A stretch of DNA of 64,000 bases from an uncultured Gammaproteobacteria bacterium (GTDB lineage: Bacteria; Patescibacteriota; Patescibacteriia; UBA9934; GWF2-40-263). The DNA is taken from NCBI GenBank assembly GCA_964538435.1, contig CAZIDX010000002.1:41566-105565 (forward strand). The letters are read 5' to 3'. Both the position numbers and the translations under genes were made by a program. Shown here in pieces: positions 12,853 through 57,469 of this stretch (positions are counted from its first letter, which is position 1; the number at the start of each line of letters is the position of its first letter). Below the pieces are notes generated by a model that searched no databases, was not told where the DNA came from, and was given only the letters and a program-made list of their open reading frames with translations.

Positions 12853-14190
12853 TCATGATTTCGAATGAATAGCTTTACGCGCCGCCTCTCTATCATCCCA
12901 AGAAATCTTCTTGCCGTTTGCCACAGCCATCACCGGCTCACTTCCTTTCCCAGTAATCAGCACAAGATCGTCAGGCTTTGCAATGCTCATTGCAAAATCG
13001 ATAGCCTCCTGCCGATCAAGAATCCTAAACAAGTTTACATCCTCTTGCGCACCGGCCTGCACAGCCGCATCAGCAACATCGTGAATGATCTGCATAGGAT
13101 CTTCATCGTAGGGATCTTCATTTGTCACAATAGCAATATCATCCCGCTCAGCAGCCATGCGCCCAAGAATCTCTCTTCGAGCCGTGTCACGCCCTCCTCC
13201 AGCCGACCCTGTCACGTGAATAACTCTCTCATGAGGAATAAGCTCAATGGCTTCGTAGACCGCAGTGAGCGCTGCAGGCTCATACGCATAATCAACTATC
13301 ACCGTATGCGGCTGCCCTTCATCAATCCGTTCCAATCGACCTGGAACCGCCTCAAGAGACTCAACCGCATCCCGAATCTCTTCCCAGCCTTTTCCAAACG
13401 CACGCAGCACAGCGATTGCCGCAAGAACATTCAACAAATTAAACCGGCCCACTGGCTTGAAGTGAAACGTATGACCAGAAAGCACAAACGTTGTGCAAGC
13501 CCCAGAAAATTCAACCTGCTCTGGAATAACAGGATTTCTCGTAAGCTCAAGAGTCAACCGATCTCCAGCATGCTCACGAATCCCAAACCCAGCTTTCACA
13601 TCTGCTTCATGCGCCAAAAAACTAAACGCATGATCATCATCAATGTTCACCACGCTCACAGTTTCAATCTCCTTCTCACCAATTGTTTTTCTTTCTTTCG
13701 CACTGAGAGAACGAAACAGAAGTTCTTTTGCGCTCTTATACGCATCAAACCCGCCATGCGCTTCAATATGTTCAGGAGTCAAATTTGTAAACACAGCAGC
13801 ATCGTAATGCACACCAACATGCCTATGCTGAACCAAACCTTGTGAAGAAGTCTCAACAATTGCATACCCACAACTCTGCTTCTTCATCTCATAAAGAAGC
13901 TTGTGCGTCTGAAAGCGTCCAAGCATGGTCATCTTCTGATCATTCACCCACTCCTTCTTTCCAACCTTCAAACTTGCTGTTGATGTCCACCCAACACTCT
14001 CACCCATCTGCTCAAGCATTCTCCCCAAAAACTGCACGGTCGTAGACTTCCCATTTGTCCCAGTCACACCAATCACCACCATGCTCTCAGACGGATGATT
14101 GTATGCAGCTGCAGCCACCCGAGCCAAAGCATAGTGATATGCGGTAATCACCTTCTCAGGAACTAATTTTCGAATGAAACGTTTAGTCAT
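12853..14190 (-). CDS. murE: Mur ligase, MurE-like (UDP-MurNAc-tripeptide synthetase), short N-terminal domain, altered DNPR motif
   Basis: IGVTGTNGKSTT P-loop, NLTPEHIEAHGGFDAYKSAKELLF, GKGSE, and TNEDPYDEDP aligning to MurE TSDNPRSEDP (DNPR replaced by EDPY); adjacent to murD. Confidence 0.6.
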   Translation of the reverse strand: MTKRFIRKLVPEKVITAYHYALARVAAAAYNHPSESMVVIGVTGTNGKSTTVQFLGRMLEQMGESVGWTSTASLKVGKKEWVNDQKMTMLGRFQTHKLLYEMKKQSCGYAIVETSSQGLVQHRHVGVHYDAAVFTNLTPEHIEAHGGFDAYKSAKELLFRSLSAKERKTIGEKEIETVSVVNIDDDHAFSFLAHEADVKAGFGIREHAGDRLTLELTRNPVIPEQVEFSGACTTFVLSGHTFHFKPVGRFNLLNVLAAIAVLRAFGKGWEEIRDAVESLEAVPGRLERIDEGQPHTVIVDYAYEPAALTAVYEAIELIPHERVIHVTGSAGGGRDTARREILGRMAAERDDIAIVTNEDPYDEDPMQIIHDVADAAVQAGAQEDVNLFRILDRQEAIDFAMSIAKPDDLVLITGKGSEPVMAVANGKKISWDDREAARKAIHSKS

Positions 14191-14193
14191 AAA

Positions 14194-14256
14194 AGCGACT
14201 AGCGTATAGCGATTAGCGATTAGTCTATACGCTATTCGCTAAACGCTCCTCGCTGC
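14194..14256. repeat. 63-bp nine-heptad palindromic element, copy A: (AGCGNNN)x4-AGTCTAT-(NCGCTNN)x4, 3 nt upstream of murE ATG
   Basis: agcgact agcgtat agcgatt agcgatt agtctat acgctat tcgctaa acgctcc tcgctgc; same architecture at 27093-27155 and 30703-30765. Confidence 0.8.
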
Positions 14257-14323
14257 ATTTTTAACATACCCCAAAAAATTTCCAGCATCCTGGACAGCTT
14301 CATTGTACCATGTTTGTTAAATC

Positions 14324-14350
14324 AAAAAGCGGGGATAACCCGCTCTTTAT
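14324..14350. terminator. terminator after murD: agcggg-gataa-cccgct with flanking A/T runs
   Basis: Read directly. Confidence 0.55.
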
Positions 14351-26797: not shown

Positions 26798-27079
26798 TTA
26801 CTGTTTTGGTTCAATGTTCGCGTACTTCCGATTTTTCAGAGCGCCATGAAAGTTCTTTGCCTTTTTCTGAGTAAACTTCACAATACCGCTCACAACCGCA
26901 TAAAGCGTATCATCAGCACCACGTCGGACATTTTTTCCAGGATGGATCTTTGTACCACGCTGCCGAACAAGAATCTGTCCAGCATTGATTGTCTGGCCAT
27001 CACCCACTTTAGCGCCAAGACGCTTACTTTGTGAATCACGACCCAAACTAGTACTTCCACCAGCTTTTTTATGTGCCAT
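26798..27079 (-). CDS. rpmA: 50S ribosomal protein L27
   Basis: [29 protein letters not shown]...[13 protein letters not shown] canonical bL27. Confidence 0.9.
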
Positions 27080-27092
27080 ATTATAATCTTCA

Positions 27093-27155
27093 AGCGAATA
27101 GCGGTTAGCGGTTAGCGAATAATCTACTCGCTCATCACTCTTCGCTCATCGCTGC
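27093..27155. repeat. 63-bp nine-heptad palindromic element, copy B, 13 nt upstream of rpmA ATG
   Basis: agcgaat agcggtt agcggtt agcgaat aatctac tcgctca tcactct tcgctca tcgctgc. Confidence 0.8.
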
Positions 27156-27198
27156 AATAATCAATTAACGCCAGGAGTTTAGCTAAATCCCTGTTTTT

Positions 27199-27227
27199 TG
27201 TCAATACTTCACTCCACAATAGCAAGA
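27199..27227 (-). promoter_or_regulatory. candidate promoter TTGACA-N17-TAAACT (minus strand) for rpmA, leaving about 100-nt leader containing element B
   Basis: Read on reverse complement. Confidence 0.35.
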
Positions 27228-27285
27228 CCCCGTCCGAAGACGGGGTCCGTACGTACCCGGAAAACCCCGGATACAGGCTGCTTGT

Positions 27286-27933: not shown

Positions 27934-28025
27934 GTACTTTCCTCCGGCTCGAATCTATTCCGAGCAACAAGACAAGTTATACTATTTTTCCCATTTTGTC
28001 AACCAATACGCTATAATCAAGCCGT

Positions 28026-29073: not shown

Positions 29074-30696
29074 CTACTTTTTCAAGGCAGCCTTCACAAA
29101 CGCCTTGAAGACAGGATGTGGGTGCAACGGACGTGATTTAAACTCAGGATGAAACTGCACACCAACAAAGAACGGGTGATCCTTGAGCTCAACAATCTCA
29201 ACCAAACCGTTTTGCGGATTCACACCAGAGATCACCATTCCATTTTCCTCAAGCGCCTGCGTGTAAACATTATTAAACTCGTACCGATGTCTGTGCCGCT
29301 CTGAAACAAGATCTTCTCCGTACGCTCGCCTTGCAATTGTTCCTTTCTTGAGCTCGCAATCATACGCACCAAGACGCATGGTCCCACCGTACTGATTCTG
29401 ACGAATATTCTTTAACTGCTTTGGATTCACATGAATAATCGGATCAACTGCCTGCTCATCCACCTCCACGGTATGCGCCCCCTTCTTTCCTAGAACGTTT
29501 CGAGCAAACTCTACGCAGGCAAGCTGCATGCCGTAGCAAATTCCAAAGTACGGAATATTTTTCTCGCGACAATACTTAATCGTTGAGATCACTCCTTCGA
29601 TGCCGCGCGTTCCAAACCCACCAGGAACAAGCACGCCGTCATACTTTGAAAGCGAGCGAAGCTTCTTTTTATCCTCTTCAAACTCCTCTGAATTCACCCA
29701 CACAAGCTCAATCCGAGCCTTGTTGTGCCATGCAGCCGACTTAAGTGCCTCGATCACAGAAATATAAGAATCAGAAAGTGTGTAGTCACCGGTTGAAAAA
29801 TACTTCCCAACCACACCAATCTTTACTTTCTTCTCAGACTTGTCCTGCACATCCGCCATGCGATTCCATGCCTTCAAATCCGACTTCTTTTTCCGCTCAC
29901 CAAACTTCTTCAAAATCATGTCCGACAACCCTTGCTTTTCAAACATCTGAGGAATGTGATAGATCGTCTTCACATCTGGTGCTGAAATCACGTCCCCTGG
30001 CTTCACATTACAAAAGATTGAAAGCTTGTCCCGCCTAGGCTTATCCATATACTGCTCACCTCGACAGATTATAAAATCCGGATGAATACCAACACTATTA
30101 AGTGTTCGCGTAGCCTGCTGCGTAGGCTTTGTCTTCATCTCTCCCAAGTGACTTGGAATTGGCAAGTAGCTCACCATCACAAACATCACACTCTCTGGAT
30201 CCTCAAGATGCATCATGCGCGCCGCCTCCAGGAAAAGGATGTTCTCATACTCCCCAACAGTTCCACCCACTTCAATCATGGTGAAATCTGCCTTGGCATT
30301 TTTTGCAGCCTTCTTAATCCGACTAATCACCTCAAGCGGGATATGTGGCACCACCTGCACACACTTCCCCTTGTACCCAAGGTTTCTCTCCCTCTCAATC
30401 ACGCTCTGATACACACGACCTGTGGTCATGTAGTTCATGCTTGTTAAATCTGTTTCCAAAAATCGCTCATAGTTCCCCATATCCTGATCCGTCTCATCAC
30501 CGTCATCAGTTACAAAAACTTCACCGTGCTCAACAGGGTTCATAGTTCCAGCATCCACATTCACATACGGATCAACTTTAATGGCAGTCACACTGTACCC
30601 ACGAGACTGTAGTATCTTTCCTATGGACGCAGTGGTGACCCCTTTTCCCACACCGGACATCACTCCACCCACAACGAAAATATATTTGTGTTTCAT
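29074..30696 (-). CDS. pyrG: CTP synthase; start at internal Met (MKHKYIFVVGG...), ORF-track 5-prime extension overlaps repeat C
   Basis: N-terminal synthetase domain GGVMSGVGKG, C-terminal glutamine amidotransferase GICYGMQ...HPEF. Confidence 0.9.
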   Translation of the reverse strand: MKHKYIFVVGGVMSGVGKGVTTASIGKILQSRGYSVTAIKVDPYVNVDAGTMNPVEHGEVFVTDDGDETDQDMGNYERFLETDLTSMNYMTTGRVYQSVIERERNLGYKGKCVQVVPHIPLEVISRIKKAAKNAKADFTMIEVGGTVGEYENILFLEAARMMHLEDPESVMFVMVSYLPIPSHLGEMKTKPTQQATRTLNSVGIHPDFIICRGEQYMDKPRRDKLSIFCNVKPGDVISAPDVKTIYHIPQMFEKQGLSDMILKKFGERKKKSDLKAWNRMADVQDKSEKKVKIGVVGKYFSTGDYTLSDSYISVIEALKSAAWHNKARIELVWVNSEEFEEDKKKLRSLSKYDGVLVPGGFGTRGIEGVISTIKYCREKNIPYFGICYGMQLACVEFARNVLGKKGAHTVEVDEQAVDPIIHVNPKQLKNIRQNQYGGTMRLGAYDCELKKGTIARRAYGEDLVSERHRHRYEFNNVYTQALEENGMVISGVNPQNGLVEIVELKDHPFFVGVQFHPEFKSRPLHPHPVFKAFVKAALKK

Positions 30697-30702
30697 AAAC
30701 AA

Positions 30703-30765
30703 AGCGTTTAGCGGGTAGCGTATAGCGGGTAGTCTAATCGCTACTCGCTCCACGCTAATCGCTCT
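30703..30765. repeat. 63-bp nine-heptad palindromic element, copy C, 6 nt upstream of pyrG ATG
   Basis: agcgttt agcgggt agcgtat agcgggt agtctaa tcgctac tcgctcc acgctaa tcgctct. Confidence 0.8.
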
Positions 30766-30793
30766 AAATTAAAAACGGGCCATGCCCGCTTTA

Positions 30794-31237: not shown

Positions 31238-31333
31238 AAGCTTAGCTCAATTATACCAGATTGCACCTGCCCAGACAAAACATTGTTCACCTGATCGAAA
31301 CTAAGTATACTCAATGCATAACCAAACATACTT

Positions 31334-34041: not shown

Positions 34042-36489
34042 TCAAACCCCAACTTGCTTCCCTCGATCCAACTTAACCCTCTGAATCTCCATCCCCTCAC
34101 CCTCCTCTGGATTCTCAAGCGCATCAATAAACGCAGATCGATGCGAAATAATAACAAATGTTGTATTCGGTCGCTTCTTTTTCTCCGCTAGCATAATCCG
34201 CGCCACCTCTGCCTCAGTCTCCTCATCAAGTTCCTCTGTTGCTTGATCCAAAAACACAATCCCCCCATTCTCCTGCGAACGAATCTTAAGAAGCACACGA
34301 GCAAGCCCAAGCCGAGCTTTCTCACCACCAGACAATCCTTTTATGCTACCCCTTAGATCCAACACACCATCCTGAGTAAACCGCTCAGCAAGTCCAAGCT
34401 CACTCAAAATCTGAATCATGTCCGCATCCTGCGCATCATTTGTTCCAAATGAAATGTTATCTCGAAGATTCCCACTGTCAAAAATGTATGGATGCTGCGA
34501 TAAATACGCAACATGAGAATAAAGAGAATCTTCACCCGTTCGCTTGATATTCCCAATATCCTGACCACCAATCTTAACCTCACCTTCAGTCGGAGAATAA
34601 TAGCCTGACATGAGCCGCGAAAGTGTTGTCTTCCCATGACCACTTCGCCCCTCCAATCGAATCACTCCCCCAGCCGGAACTTTAAACTCAACACCTTCAA
34701 TAATCTTGTTCCCATCGATCTCAAGTCCAACACCTGAAAGCTCAAGAGCAAAATCTTCAAGTTCAGACGCTCCCACACGTTTCTGATCAGCCTCCACCTC
34801 TGCTCGCGCATATCCATTAAATACCTCCTCCATTTCCACAATAGCTTCCACTGATTTAATCAGATCATTATTAACTCTTAAAATCTCACCAAACCCTCTG
34901 CTAAAGTGCTGAGAATAAATAATCGCCGCAACAACATCGCCAGCATTTCCCATCCCCATCTCTCGAAGAACAGCACCAGTGCCAACAAGCCCCGCAATTA
35001 CACTACTATTTAACACATAACCATGCTGAAACTCCATGTCAGCCCGAGCATGAGTGCGCTCATGTCCGATCTCATTCCAATTCTTACCAATCTCCTCAAC
35101 CCTCTGAGCTATTTTTTCTTGCATGCCACCAAGAACAATATCCTGATGAGCATCTACCTGCTCTCCAATCTCTTGTGCCAGTGCATCTTCATTCTCGTAC
35201 GACTCCATAATGATCGGGTGAAGGCGTTTATCTGCCTTCCGTGCAATTGAAATTGCAATTGGCGCAGAAGCAAGCGAAATAAGACCCAACCTCCAATCCA
35301 TTGCCATCATCGCAGTGAACCCAACACTGGCGGTAGCAACCGCAGGTAAATGAACGCGCGCAACTGAAAACAAAATATCTTTAAATGCGCTTTGAGACCG
35401 ACGCATGGACGAAATAATCCTACCTCTTTCTTCCCCTCCCATTCTCTCACCCGGCTGAAACACTAAATCCTGAGAAAGCCGCTCATACAATCCATCTTGA
35501 TGTTCAGTAATCTCATTCATGAGCTGGTTAAACCCAATATCTAGCCTCCTCTTGATTCCACCAGAAGCCAAATTGATTCCAAGATACCCAAGCGCAAATG
35601 TCGCGGCCATCATTCCACCCACCTCATCATTAAGAGCCTTCCCCAAAAGAGCAGGGCCGACCCCCTCAACCGCACCGACCCCAGTCATAGCAACCGCAAA
35701 CTTCACATACTGACTCTTATCCCCATCACTCAAATATTCATTCCACACCTCTTTCATCACCCGAAGACGCTGTGTTTCCTGTGGCTTACCCTCTGGATCA
35801 AACTCCGGAATCTCATCACCTGCCTGCGCAAGCAAAACAAGATTCTTAACCTGTTCCTTTGAAAAACCAAACTTAGAGTACGCGCGAATCATCTCACGCT
35901 CAATGTATGGCTGTTGCTCTGCATCTGGCTTGGTTGATGCGCGTTTTTGAAGCTTCTCAAGGGTTACCTGAAACTGCCCCACGTTTTCAAACTCCGTAAT
36001 CTGCTCCGCCCAACGCTGCATGTTGAAAATCATGTCCTGATCATCCTGACCGAGCTCACGCTCATGTTCTTCACTCTTTGCATCCACCCACCAAAGCACC
36101 TGCCCCTTCTCAGGAACAGACTCAATACCTGTATCTTGCACGTCCTCCCTGAACGTTAAAACCTTTGCAGCAACACGCTCCATCTGCTCATACACAGCAT
36201 CATCTGGCTCATCCATGAAATGTTTCTCACCAACCTGAGCCTCAATCGTACGAATCACATAATTCATCTCCGCCTGCAGCTGTGGAGGCACCTCTGGAAT
36301 CCCAAACTGCTCTCGAAGTGCAGCCTCAACACTCTCTCTTGCATCGTCTAAAGATTCCTGTAAGGTTTCAGGAAGAACTTCTCGAAGGTCATCAAAACCA
36401 CGATCGTGATATTGCTCACGAACGTGCTCATCAAGTTTCTTTGGCTTCATGGCCAATTCCTGTGGTGAAGGTCGGTAGAGTTCCCCCAT
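34042..36489 (-). CDS. ABC transporter, fused permease/ATP-binding protein with long N-terminal extension
   Basis: C-terminal NBD: Walker A GRSGHGKTTL, signature LSGGEKARLGLARVLL, Walker B IVFLDQATEELD. Confidence 0.75.
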   Translation of the reverse strand: MGELYRPSPQELAMKPKKLDEHVREQYHDRGFDDLREVLPETLQESLDDARESVEAALREQFGIPEVPPQLQAEMNYVIRTIEAQVGEKHFMDEPDDAVYEQMERVAAKVLTFREDVQDTGIESVPEKGQVLWWVDAKSEEHERELGQDDQDMIFNMQRWAEQITEFENVGQFQVTLEKLQKRASTKPDAEQQPYIEREMIRAYSKFGFSKEQVKNLVLLAQAGDEIPEFDPEGKPQETQRLRVMKEVWNEYLSDGDKSQYVKFAVAMTGVGAVEGVGPALLGKALNDEVGGMMAATFALGYLGINLASGGIKRRLDIGFNQLMNEITEHQDGLYERLSQDLVFQPGERMGGEERGRIISSMRRSQSAFKDILFSVARVHLPAVATASVGFTAMMAMDWRLGLISLASAPIAISIARKADKRLHPIIMESYENEDALAQEIGEQVDAHQDIVLGGMQEKIAQRVEEIGKNWNEIGHERTHARADMEFQHGYVLNSSVIAGLVGTGAVLREMGMGNAGDVVAAIIYSQHFSRGFGEILRVNNDLIKSVEAIVEMEEVFNGYARAEVEADQKRVGASELEDFALELSGVGLEIDGNKIIEGVEFKVPAGGVIRLEGRSGHGKTTLSRLMSGYYSPTEGEVKIGGQDIGNIKRTGEDSLYSHVAYLSQHPYIFDSGNLRDNISFGTNDAQDADMIQILSELGLAERFTQDGVLDLRGSIKGLSGGEKARLGLARVLLKIRSQENGGIVFLDQATEELDEETEAEVARIMLAEKKKRPNTTFVIISHRSAFIDALENPEEGEGMEIQRVKLDRGKQVGV

Positions 36490-55286: not shown

Positions 55287-55315
55287 ATTGACAAACCTTG
55301 AATTAAGTGCTAATT
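55287..55315 (+). promoter_or_regulatory. candidate promoter TTGACA-N17-TAATTT for GC-rich operon
   Basis: Read directly; about 100-nt leader then SD AGAGG. Confidence 0.4.
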
Positions 55316-55417
55316 TCGGCGGCTGTAACCAACCGGAATACAGAAGCCAAAACAAGAAGTTACTTAGCAACCCTCGCCCTTTCCCAAACCAACCCTAGAC
55401 CAAGAGGTAGAGGCCCC

Positions 55418-56266
55418 ATGCCAACCATGGACATTCAAGGCCCCGAGCACGTCTACACGGTCACGCACCGCGTGGGCGAGTGCAGCCACTACCGTCTCTA
55501 CACGTGTCTCCAACAGGACACAGACCGGCAGTGCATCATGATGATCGCGGCCGAGCGTCGCAACAACGCAGACCTCGAGCGCGCCGCGTACCTCCTCAAG
55601 CAACTCCGCAAGGAAGGCGACCTCAACGAGGAAGACTACGCCAAGGATCCCAAGAACGAAGGTCGTATGCTCAACTACCAGCTCGGCTTCCCCGAGGTGA
55701 TGGACAGCTTCATCTTCGAAGAGCAGGATCACCGGCGCATCCTCATCCTGGCGTTCGACAACATCCAGGAGATCGACGGCCTGGTCCCCCTCCTGAACAT
55801 TCGGGAGAAGGACCTCAAGCGCCTCGACATCAAGACCGGCGCGTGGATCCTGGGCAAGGCCCTCAAGACCCTCAAGCTAGCGCACAGCATCGGGATCTCC
55901 ATGGGTACCATGGATGCCTCCCGCATCCTGGTCCAGCTCGACGAGCACTACGTGATCATGTTCGACTGGTGCTACGCCAGGACCGGCACAGACCAGGTCC
56001 CGAGAGACCTGGCACGCCGCGACATCATGAACGTAGCCCGCGCCGTCATCACTGCCTTGGGCGGAGACTGGCGCAGCCGTCACCTCCCCTTCCCCGGCAA
56101 CGAGGAAGGGTACGGCAGGTTCACCGAAATCCTCTTCCGACTCGCTGGCGGAGCACAGACCAGCGCAGCCATGGCTCACCAGACGTTCTACGAGATGGTA
56201 GACGCGGCCTGGGAGCCTGGCTTTCACCCCGCAACCACCCACCCTCTCGAAAAGACAGGAGATTGA
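55418..56266 (+). CDS. protein-kinase-fold protein, probably pseudokinase/atypical kinase; GC-rich
   Basis: LAHSIGISMGTMDASRILV aligns to LHSxGIVHRDLKPSNILV (HRD degenerate), IMFDWCYAR to DFG region, alphaC-like LERAAYLLKQL. Confidence 0.45.
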   Translation: MPTMDIQGPEHVYTVTHRVGECSHYRLYTCLQQDTDRQCIMMIAAERRNNADLERAAYLLKQLRKEGDLNEEDYAKDPKNEGRMLNYQLGFPEVMDSFIFEEQDHRRILILAFDNIQEIDGLVPLLNIREKDLKRLDIKTGAWILGKALKTLKLAHSIGISMGTMDASRILVQLDEHYVIMFDWCYARTGTDQVPRDLARRDIMNVARAVITALGGDWRSRHLPFPGNEEGYGRFTEILFRLAGGAQTSAAMAHQTFYEMVDAAWEPGFHPATTHPLEKTGD

Positions 56267-56268
56267 TC

Positions 56269-57438
56269 ATGGGACGAGGAGTTCTCTCACGAGTAGCACA
56301 CACCAGGACGCGTGACACCGCCACCCGCGGAGGTCGCAGCGCCACCCACCGGGCCGAAGAGCGCGTGCGCATGGGCAAGGGACTCGACGTGTCCGTGGAC
56401 CCCAAGGGGTACCCGCACCTGGGTCCGGTCCGGCTCAGCCTGCCGCGCTTCGACCAGCGTGAAGACGGTCTCTGGGAGCTCACCAGCGGCATGCCCGTCC
56501 CGGTGGAGACCCTGCTCGACGGTACCGGTTCCATGGGGCACGATTTCATCGCCGCCGTCATGGCCGTCCTGCCCGACGCGTTCGATGCGTTCACCTCCGG
56601 AACCATGCCGGTGCTGGGGCGCTACGACGTGCAGATCGCCAACGCCATCTTCGGCGACACGGTCGACACCCACAACGGGCGTCACGTGCTGTGCCGGACC
56701 CAGTTCGAGATGGCCGACAAGATCTCGGTCCAGGTCACGAACCTGGCCCCGACGCACGGTGGTGCCGGCAACGGCAAGGAAGACCCCCAGTTCGGGCTCT
56801 TCGCGGCCGCCTACCTGACCAACGCCAGGCTCTGGAAGTACGGTCTGCGCGGCTACCACTTCGTCTTCACCGACGACAACTCGGTGATGGAGGTCGAGGT
56901 GAGCTGGCTGAAGCGCATCTTCGGGGATGACGTCCTCGAGCGTGCGTGCGAGAACGGCCACGACTTCTCCGGTGTGCGCAGCATCCCGACCCAGCAGGTC
57001 GTGCAGGATCTGCTGAGCCACACCAACGCCTTCGTCTTCCTGCGGCAGGGCAACAGCATCCGCTCCTGGCAGCGCCTCTACGGCAACGACCGCTGCATCG
57101 TCATGGACGACATGCCCGACACCTTCCACCTCTACGAGGCCGTGGTGATCGGGCTGACCGAGGGCATCATCAACCTGGAGACGGCCGAGACCTTCCTGAT
57201 CGAGCACGGCGCCGACCAGCGCCAGGCCCAGCGCATCGTGCACGCGGTCTCGCACATCCCCCTGGGCGCCCAGACCCTGCGCGAGAACTTCCACCGGATC
57301 CCGGTCGCCGGCGATCTGTTCCGCGAGAAGACCGACCTCTGGCCCCTCACCGCGGACGAGATCGCTGCGCACACCGGCGAGGCCTCGGACGGCGCCAGCG
57401 GCTCCAGCGAGGGTAGCGACAAGGTCCAGTGGCTCTAG
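56269..57438 (+). CDS. PP2C-like (PPM) phosphatase-fold or vWA-like protein; GC-rich
   Basis: LLDGTGSMGHDFIAAV resembles PP2C motif-2 VADGMGGHxAG; QREDG resembles RxxNED; GDTVD resembles GDSR; alternative reading as vWA MIDAS DxTxS. Confidence 0.35.
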   Translation: MGRGVLSRVAHTRTRDTATRGGRSATHRAEERVRMGKGLDVSVDPKGYPHLGPVRLSLPRFDQREDGLWELTSGMPVPVETLLDGTGSMGHDFIAAVMAVLPDAFDAFTSGTMPVLGRYDVQIANAIFGDTVDTHNGRHVLCRTQFEMADKISVQVTNLAPTHGGAGNGKEDPQFGLFAAAYLTNARLWKYGLRGYHFVFTDDNSVMEVEVSWLKRIFGDDVLERACENGHDFSGVRSIPTQQVVQDLLSHTNAFVFLRQGNSIRSWQRLYGNDRCIVMDDMPDTFHLYEAVVIGLTEGIINLETAETFLIEHGADQRQAQRIVHAVSHIPLGAQTLRENFHRIPVAGDLFREKTDLWPLTADEIAAHTGEASDGASGSSEGSDKVQWL

Positions 57439-57469
57439 GGACGAGCTGAATCCAGCTCTACGACAACGA

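Follow-up and report, generated by a model that had tools for sequence, protein, structure and literature searches.

Why should three housekeeping genes each be preceded, within a few nucleotides of the start codon, by the same 63-bp palindrome? The question is raised by a 64,000-nt stretch of contig CAZIDX010000002.1 (the window) from an uncultured bacterium whose PyrG and MurE proteins have their closest named relatives in Candidatus Uhrbacteria (candidate phyla radiation (CPR)/Patescibacteria). The genes are murE, rpmA and pyrG. A reading made from the sequence alone had offered several roles for the palindromes: translational-control, standby or attenuator structures, an array bound by a protein that reads 7-bp repeats, or small mobile elements resembling repetitive extragenic palindromic (REP) sequences or miniature inverted-repeat transposable elements (MITEs). 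Our answer, to which we assign a probability of roughly 0.55, is that the three palindromes form one family of small, non-coding, dispersed repeats of the REP/MITE-like palindromic kind, here called the heptad-array foldback element. The rival readings discussed below are weighted lower and are compatible with this one.

Architecture of the element

The window contains exactly three copies, A, B and C, of 63 bp each, with the consensus (TAGCGNN)4-TAG-N-CTA-(NNCGCTA)4. Nine 7-bp units are arranged 4+1+4, in a register that is unbroken and is kept through the centre. Re-reading the sequence reproduced exactly the coordinates and the nine-heptad layout previously reported for the three loci. When the register is shifted by one base, the element becomes a true palindrome around a single free central base (TAG-T-CTA). 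The claim that all copies share one orientation therefore holds for the copies as drawn, but orientation is weakly defined in an element that is palindromic around a free base. Copy B has one degenerate unit, TCACTCT (CACT for CGCT), and its centre reads TAATCTA in the shifted register.

The motif AGCGN3AGCGN3AGCG, with at most one mismatch, has 13 matches in the window, 12 of them inside the three elements; the mean over 100 shuffles was 0.19. Four-unit arrays of period 7 occur three times, versus none in 20 shuffles, and a generic array scan of the window found no four-unit arrays of period 6 or 8. The readable genome amounts to ~78 kb, made up of the 64-kb window and ~14 kb of extra flank from Logan contigs (assemblies of SRR8146440), and neither part contains further copies or half-copies. 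Because unlinked sites cannot have come independently to share one box, one 4+1+4 layout and one length, and because the corresponding sites are empty in relatives (see below), we regard the three copies as one dispersed family.

Single-strand folding of the elements gave -23 to -34 kcal/mol with both strands considered. On the mRNA strand the values were -29 to -34 kcal/mol (z = -3.8 to -6.8), in agreement with the imperfect hairpin of strict 7-nt periodicity that had been proposed; the weakest fold is that of the + strand of copy B (-22.9 kcal/mol, z = -2.7). The predicted fold consists of stacked 4-6 bp helices with small internal loops between them. Rfam returned nothing at gathering score on the window, and at a relaxed E-value the elements gave far sub-threshold matches only, mostly to miRNA-precursor hairpins.

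Comparison with relatives

Orthologous regions were compared in the nearest available relatives, at 82-90% protein identity. The rplI-pyrG spacer measures 97 nt (34+63) in the window, versus 34-43 nt in five relatives whose PyrG is 81-86% identical (Table 1). This site can be aligned on both flanks, at the terminator and at TTTGTTTATG, and copy C sits between them in the window. Upstream of rpmA, the promoter TTGACA-17-TAAACT is kept in L493, L495 and L496, and only the window has the element between the -10 hexamer and the ATG; L493, L494, L495 and L496 all lack a heptad element upstream of rpmA. At the third site, a relative with a 90% identical MurE (L499) keeps the murD terminator, the extended -10 CATGGTACAAT and the small hairpin with its T6 run. 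The murE leader of L499 then holds an unrelated insert of ~270 nt with its own palindrome and no heptads. A scan of L493-L496 (~60 kb) found no arrays of period 6, 7 or 8, and a scan of L499 (~21 kb) found none of period 7.

Since the orthologous sites are empty and the upstream promoters are conserved, the elements are best described as lineage-specific insertions. On this comparison, all three copies appear to be specific to the lineage of the window, and murE, rpmA and pyrG would not need them for expression in the relatives. The sequence-only reading had itself named non-conservation in relatives as the outcome that would speak against its regulatory proposals and for a selfish repeat, and non-conservation is what we find at all three sites. 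Its mobile-palindrome proposal, by the same token, gains support from the empty orthologous sites in the closest available relatives.

Two of the leaders have received other insertions. In L499 (9640-9990) the ~270-nt palindromic insert in the murE leader has the arms GAGACATTCATTTAAAAAACT...AGTTTTTTAAATGAATGTCTC, and in L496 (12300-12530) a palindromic insert in the rpmA leader has the arms TGAAAATAGC...GCTATTTTCA. Because these relatives hold other palindromic inserts there, the murE and rpmA leaders of Uhrbacteria can be called permissive, and they appear from the sequences to be hot spots or safe havens for palindromic insertions. A shortening of murE by the insertion is ruled out, as 445 aa is the normal length in Uhrbacteria.

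Table 1. Location of the elements, of neighbouring features in the window, and of compared sites in other genomes
Feature	Location	Strand	Details
Copy A	14194..14256		Four AGCGNNT, centre AGTCTAT, four NCGCTNN; murE leader, 3 nt from ATG. + strand: AGCGACT AGCGTAT AGCGATT AGCGATT, AGTCTAT, ACGCTAT TCGCTAA ACGCTCC TCGCTGC
Copy B	27093..27155		4+1+4, centre AATCTAC; rpmA leader, 13 nt from ATG. + strand: AGCGAAT AGCGGTT AGCGGTT AGCGAAT, AATCTAC, TCGCTCA TCACTCT TCGCTCA TCGCTGC
Copy C	30703..30765		4+1+4, centre AGTCTAA; between rplI terminator and pyrG ATG, 6 nt from ATG. + strand: AGCGTTT AGCGGGT AGCGTAT AGCGGGT, AGTCTAA, TCGCTAC TCGCTCC ACGCTAA TCGCTCT
murE-like Mur ligase	12853..14190	-	445 aa; TIGR01085, 335 bits; downstream of copy A
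rpmA (ribosomal protein L27)	26798..27079	-	93 aa; downstream of copy B
pyrG (CTP synthase)	29074..30696	-	540 aa; downstream of copy C
rpmA promoter TTGACA-17-TAAACT	27176..27204	-	Copy B starts 20 nt downstream of the -10 hexamer
Putative murE promoter, extended -10 TGgTACAAT	14302..14310	-	Copy A ~45 nt downstream; kept in L499
Small leader hairpin TCCAGGATGCTGGA + T6 run	14281..14294	-	Between murE promoter and copy A; kept in L499
rplI terminator hairpin	30776..30788	.	T-run stops a few nt before copy C
murD terminator hairpin	14328..14344	.	Upstream of murE promoter and copy A
rplI-pyrG spacer, 39 nt	L493 (GCA_900089805.1)		PyrG 86%
rplI-pyrG spacer, 34 nt	L494		PyrG 82%
rplI-pyrG spacer, 37 nt	L495		PyrG 86%
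rplI-pyrG spacer, 43 nt	L496		PyrG 83%
rplI-pyrG spacer, 35 nt	JGI contig		Gene table only
Omnitrophota foldbacks	L501 2818-2928, 1360-1500; L502 1394-1480, 2800-2890
Phage-like foldbacks	L295 106-170, 493-591, 923-1005, 9653-9718; also L319, L260, L330, L269

Position within the leaders

The distances to the minus-strand ATGs (Table 1) confirm the 3-13 nt spacing reported earlier. The claim that the elements lie inside mRNA leaders is backed by the conserved promoters upstream of copies A and B, and on these grounds the elements are probably transcribed within the murE, rpmA and pyrG leaders. At pyrG there is no room for a separate promoter, because the T-run of the rplI terminator ends a few nucleotides before copy C. 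Each copy had also been placed downstream of the terminator of the preceding gene. Our terminator scan detected such terminators for copies A and C, but on the upstream side of copy B only a GC-rich hairpin is visible (27226-27247). A promoter within the element, with TAGACT or TAGATT of the centre as the -10, was considered and rejected: copy A has no acceptable -35 at 16-18 bp, the consensus scan did not report such a promoter, and copies A and B have good conserved promoters on their upstream side.

It is true, as had been observed, that no Shine-Dalgarno (SD) sequence separates the elements from the start codons, but this is uninformative in a genome that rarely uses SD sites: only 7 of the 35 open reading frames (ORFs) of the window that start with ATG have an SD-like motif. 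Extended -10 boxes of the TGGTATAAT type stand 10-20 nt before start codons, for example at 31250-31278, at 27988-28017 and upstream of 34042-36489, and the TGGTAnAAT form found at murE also precedes other genes in the window. Because extended -10 boxes lie only 10-20 nt before the ATGs, very short-leadered or leaderless mRNAs devoid of SD sites would seem to be the normal state in this genome.

With the elements probably in the mRNAs, they might act in cis as leader RNA, the hairpin controlling the start of translation or the fate of the transcript as a standby structure, attenuator or stabiliser, or else serving RNase III, which would trim the leader to the very short length that is usual in this SD-poor genome. 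Consistent with such a role are the position downstream of conserved promoters, the stability of the predicted hairpins, the ending of the elements 3-13 nt from the AUG, the U-rich tracts that follow copies A and C, and the shortness of the native leaders, whose -10 boxes lie 10-20 nt from the ATGs. Against it stand the orthologous leaders that do without the element. The spacer positions form 2x2 internal loops and do not covary, and selection on a helix does not predict strict identity of the boxes. The terminator scan did not flag the elements, no Rfam family matches them, and direct-only arrays with no inverted arm also precede genes elsewhere (for example, L128 and L133). We consider this explanation improbable. 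The earlier translational-control, standby or attenuator proposal thus does not hold up well: it lacks conservation, complementarity between spacers (13/40 positions, see below) and an Rfam match, and the missing SD site on which it drew is the norm here.

Probable constraint on the boxes

The three copies are alike in a peculiar way. Box and centre positions are identical between copies at 42-44 of 47 positions (89-94%), whereas spacer positions agree at only 3-5 of 16 (19-31%), the random level. Five strict-architecture copies supply 40 units, whose seven positions carry, in order, 0.66 (T), 2.0 (A), 2.0 (G), 1.5 (C), 2.0 (G), 0.46 and 0.40 bits of information. In the strict-architecture copies, 13 of 40 spacer positions are complementary across the arms, which is near chance, and so is the ~31% found in other TAGCG elements with varied spacers. 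The paired box positions never vary, and so offer no compensatory changes in support of a helix. Since mirrored spacer bases are complementary only near chance, the helix does not appear to be optimised; the pattern argues for constraint on the sequence of the boxes and not on a selected RNA helix.

A related array elsewhere can be followed over a short distance. Three metagenomic genomes (L126, L130 and L139) with ~90% identical flanks share a TAGCG foldback at one orthologous site, where the order is terminator, element, SD and ATG of a holB-like gene (a tentative assignment, from the N-terminal sequence only). The boxes are invariant, and L126 and L139 agree at none of eight spacer bases. 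In one arm there is a 21-nt indel, which amounts to exactly three units, and the central base is T in one genome and A in another (TAG-T-CTA versus TAG-A-CTA). From this comparison, arrays persist over short distances, change by whole units and have no intrinsic orientation. A contribution of unit turnover by slippage is thus seen directly at this site, in a related family outside the window.

Invariant boxes and free spacers are also what would be expected if the elements were operator- or centromere-like DNA arrays, in which each 7-bp unit is one site for a small dimeric protein that coats the 4+4 units. Lying at about +13 to +76 of the transcription units, such arrays could be a cooperative roadblock or loading sites for a lineage-specific global regulator. 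There are precedents. The heptad operators/parS of plasmid pSM19035 are bound by omega (ParB-pSM) and need at least four contiguous heptads, in any orientation (PMC9499535). ParG of TP228 binds arrays of ACTC boxes (OF, parH); each box takes one ribbon-helix-helix dimer, and the spacers are AT-rich and 4 bp long (PMC3130281). In both systems, contiguous units (7 bp for omega, 8 bp for ParG), some direct and some inverted, combine a conserved core with tolerant flanks, and the dimers, one per unit, coat the DNA cooperatively. The element has a core of 4-5 bp, a tolerant spacer and 4+4 units plus a half-unit centre; the four contiguous units in each arm, direct and inverted, equal the requirement of pSM19035 parS, and the box-plus-spacer logic is that of ParG sites. 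The 7-bp register is exact through the centre, and the lack of base-pair covariation is as expected for reading of double-stranded DNA. Paired inverted arrays in Geobacter metallireducens have likewise been interpreted as sites of an unknown global regulator (PMC2700814).

The resemblance has limits. The arrays bound by omega and ParG belong to the plasmid's own partition and copy-control operons, in whose promoters or centromeres they lie, and their ribbon-helix-helix protein is known, whereas the heptad elements are chromosomal, lie downstream of housekeeping promoters and not in an operon of their own, and form a perfect 4+1+4 palindrome. We found no candidate protein and no ribbon-helix-helix hit among the scanned ORFs of the window. 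Neither murE, rpmA and pyrG nor the genes beside similar elements elsewhere (leuD, ispD and ssb-like, rpiB-like and holB-like genes) make a coherent regulon. The sites are absent in relatives that have the same genes and promoters, and different boxes at the same spacer in related genomes would call for many co-evolving regulators. On balance, we think operator function unlikely. The near-invariance of the boxes and the randomised spacers do favour the earlier proposal that a protein reads the 7-bp repeats.

UAG-N4 repeats can also be bound as RNA by ring proteins, as in HutP/TRAP-like systems, which to our knowledge are restricted to Firmicutes. We considered this possibility and think it unlikely, as the T of TAG is the weakest box position and the TAG-consistent arm is antisense to the genes of the window.

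Heptad arrays in other genomes

A search for four AGCGNNT units, with one genome per species, gave at least 120 loci. Among the listed matches there are two kinds. The first, found chiefly in Proteobacteria, Acidobacteria and similar groups, comprises microsatellites whose units are all identical, for example (TAGCGAA)n; a degenerate inverted arm is frequent. The second has four to five units with varied spacers, a loop and inverted units, and occurs in Omnitrophota, Elusimicrobia/Endomicrobiales and CPR (Parcubacteria). Direct-only arrays of the AGCG box were found, again among the listed matches, in Atribacterota, Saccharibacteria and Microgenomates. When a TARTCTA centre was required as well, a metagenome scan gave 21 loci, some of them in the strict 63-bp form.

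One strict 63-bp element, in an Omnitrophota genome (L127; named LeuC relatives ~80%), fills the entire leuC-leuD spacer: at one end it overlaps the leuC stop codon, and its other end is 1 nt away from the leuD ATG. For about 16 of 19 TAGCG elements, as judged by eye, a plausible gene start lies no more than ~30 nt from one end; ORF calls give fewer, with several contigs truncated. Read from their first residues, the adjacent genes seem to be housekeeping genes of various kinds (leuD, ispD, ssb-like, rpiB-like, holB-like and sugar-nucleotidyltransferase-like), with leuC and leuD alone checked by tools.

Other boxes occupy the same kind of site. In two Omnitrophota relatives of L127 (L501 and L502; LeuC 87% and 84%) the same spacers contain different foldbacks: the leuC-leuD spacer of L501 has (TAGTTCA)n-loop-(TGAACTA)n and that of L502 a palindrome that is neither heptad-based nor periodic. 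Over the fabF-leuC and leuC-leuD spacers of both genomes we observed TAGTTCA heptads, AAAAGNN heptads, AAATCCCAAT units and the non-periodic palindrome. In GC-rich phage-like contigs, foldbacks of the form (TAGGCAG)n-loop-(CTGCCTA)n occur several times per few kilobases, each directly before an SD and ATG. What recurs, as far as these sequences indicate, is the architecture and its niche in the gap before a gene start, not one sequence family.

Searches of plasmid and phage records gave a single plasmid match and a weak, partial phage match. The plasmid, NZ_CP087125.1 of Sulfurovum mangrovi, carries a perfect (CTAAACG)x8-9 microsatellite (L500 8001-8058) in an unannotated ~2 kb with no coding sequence in the PLSDB table; this is the box in its plain tandem form, in a cultured organism.

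The presence of the TAGCG box in several phyla was considered as proof of a shared factor and rejected as ascertainment, since the box itself was the query: in IMG/VR, four-unit heptad arrays of other boxes of the same composition number 29 to at least 120 loci and are as common or commoner.

The same counts bear on another idea, that the element is a frame-independent barrier to translation. A TAG every 7 nt (7 = 1 mod 3) closes three reading frames, and the inverted arm closes those of the other strand, so that the downstream start would be insulated from ribosomes arriving from either side. Copies A and B do have stops in all six frames, and stops are found in other foldback boxes as well (TAGGCAG in the phage contigs, TAGTTCA in L501). 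In IMG/VR, boxes containing a stop gave 86, at least 120, at least 120 and at least 120 loci, versus 29, 60, 61 and 94 for stop-free boxes; with eight same-composition heptad boxes, four per class, viral contigs only and some counts lower bounds, this comparison is suggestive only. However, in copy C the pyrG frame runs through the element without a stop, the least conserved position of the box is the T of TAG (0.66 bits), and the upstream genes are already closed by stop codons and terminators. A translation barrier is therefore very improbable.

A heptad-phased structure of boxes and spacers recurs widely and is almost undescribed. It is conceivable, if rather doubtful, that heptad-phased foldback arrays make up a class that is widespread in CPR, Omnitrophota, other phyla and phages and has hardly been described, with invariant 4-5 bp boxes read by dedicated multimerising proteins, and that they are portable cassettes inserted time and again immediately before housekeeping genes. 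Possible roles would be operator- or centromere-like platforms, or insulators of six-frame translation and of transcripts. The 7-bp phase would then be the functional point, either through the geometry of a protein spiral or through 7 = 1 mod 3.

Comparison with known systems

Literature searches on the repeat strings returned nothing, and those on heptanucleotide repeats returned only the G. metallireducens paper and the omega and ParG systems. REP sequences and REPINs share much with the element: they are short extragenic palindromes capable of forming hairpins, intergenic, co-transcribed with their neighbours and lineage-specific, and their sequence presumably stays recognisable for the sake of a sequence-specific protein. 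They are mobilised or maintained by RAYT Y1 transposases. REP sequences are 20-40 bp long, with a GTAG/CGTC tag and no 7-bp periodicity, whereas the element has 63 bp in nine phased units. Its units start with xAGCG (x = T, A or G) and its ends read AAGCG... and ...CGCTG/C, with no GTAG tag. Copies of a REP are alike over the whole stem; the heptad copies are alike in boxes and centre only. No RAYT was found among the scanned ORFs of the 64-kb window or in the gene tables of the 14-kb flanks.

MITEs are small, non-autonomous inverted-repeat insertions near gene starts, present or absent between relatives, and form leader hairpins; the Neisseria Correia/NEMIS elements, for example, are co-transcribed as hairpins. 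The element resembles them in its empty sites in relatives at all three loci and in being as a whole an inverted repeat around TAG-N-CTA. Of the defined terminal inverted repeats, the target-site duplications and the parental insertion sequence (IS) that characterise MITEs, none is demonstrable for the element. Its arms, unlike MITE ends, are tandem arrays of a 5-bp box. The element is therefore filed beside REP and MITE in kind and is a member of neither, because it has no GTAG tag, no similarity over its whole length, no demonstrable target-site duplication and no parental IS or RAYT in 78 kb.

The closest description concerns G. metallireducens. According to the passages of its genome paper that deal with repeats (PMC2700814, Aklujkar et al. 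2009), inverted arrays of four to five tandem hepta- or octanucleotides occur there in 8-24 pairs per class, are absent from G. sulfurreducens, and have IS elements inserted at a fixed distance from them. The same passages list them, by sequence alignment only, as 'putative global regulator binding sites' of classes 1-3. Common to these arrays, as described there, and the element are the 4-5 tandem units of 7-8 nt with an inverted set, the multiple copies, the intergenic position and the species specificity. The boxes differ (GTTGCTYN, TCTCCGTS, MTYCTGA), the distance between arms is variable, and the passages in question report no link to start codons (PMC2700814). The likeness is one of kind and not of homology, the boxes being unrelated.

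Three further classes fit less well. The elements do not look like intrinsic terminators: the scan was silent on them and the stems are interrupted every 4-5 bp, although copies A and C have U-rich tails. Nor do they look like cis-regulatory leader RNAs, being absent in L493-L496 and L499 and showing neither compensatory changes nor an Rfam match. The cyanobacterial STRR heptanucleotide repeats, reportedly described by Mazel et al. in 1990, are also tandem 7-nt units that are intergenic and confined to particular lineages; they differ in being plain arrays of identical units, not phased box-plus-spacer palindromes.

Interpretation

Returning to the dispersed-repeat reading, we propose the following course of events. 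As the empty sites indicate, the elements entered this Uhrbacteria lineage after its split from the nearest sequenced relatives, landing in the few permissive spots of a compact genome, namely the stretch from promoter or terminator to start codon. They would be transcribed in the murE, rpmA and pyrG leaders, where each could form an interrupted hairpin 28 units long. To judge from the conservation pattern, the maintained feature would be the box of 4-5 bp every 7 bp and not the helix. The boxes would most likely be read by a sequence-specific multimerising protein, either the factor that spreads or maintains the repeat or a host protein that co-opts it. Arrays would also gain and lose whole 7-bp units, as seen in the related family elsewhere, though not in the window. 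Any effect on the three genes would be a by-product and not a conserved control circuit.

Several points weigh against dispersal as a mobile repeat. Neither the window (Pfam/NCBIfam on most of the larger ORFs) nor the flanks (precomputed Pfam) yielded a transposase, a RAYT or any other mobilising gene, and there are only three copies in ~78 kb. Recent transposition predicts near-identical copies, yet the spacers stand at random identity, so that old insertions kept under selection, unit turnover or imprecise copying must be invoked. There is no unambiguous target-site duplication: the pyrG junctions lie in T-runs (TTTAG|...|TTGTTT versus TTTTTTTGTTT in L495), and the murE and rpmA leaders are too diverged from those of the relatives to be judged. 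No target motif for insertion could be defined. The sharing of TAGCG across phyla is in part an ascertainment effect. Finally, loss in the relatives instead of gain here would explain the empty sites, but is less parsimonious.

Other features of the window

The small hairpin and T6 run directly after the murE extended -10 are not part of the heptad element and are independent of copy A; they may serve as a leader attenuator or belong to the promoter architecture. GC skew of the + strand is strongly negative across 1-64000 (-0.07 to -0.36 per 2 kb). As its sign does not change, the window lies within one replichore, with most genes co-oriented on the G-rich strand; most genes of the window are on the minus strand. 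About 2 kb at 55300-57450 has 64% G+C, against ~46% for the genome. For the gene called in this stretch (56287-57372, minus, 361 aa) the Logan gene table lists no precomputed Pfam hit, a Pfam search with the + strand ORFs that overlap it (55480-57438 and 55307-56266) was negative, and the stretch has no Rfam match. It may be foreign DNA or an unusual gene.

Implications

If the dispersed-repeat reading is correct, a motif that stands before three essential genes should not be annotated as the signal of a regulon or as a leader RNA, since it would be a lineage-specific insertion. It would also mean that the extremely compact genomes of CPR bacteria tolerate hairpin-forming inserts of 63 nt at 3-13 nt from the starts of rpmA, pyrG and murE, and this tolerance would bear on how translation is initiated on short-leader mRNAs that have no SD site. 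More widely, the pattern of invariant boxes every 7 bp, random spacers and whole-unit indels would recur with different boxes in several phyla and on phage contigs. In the literature searched, this class is mentioned only in passing in one genome paper, that of G. metallireducens. It would point to an uncharacterised system of protein-DNA or protein-RNA recognition, or to an equally uncharacterised way of making and spreading repeats.

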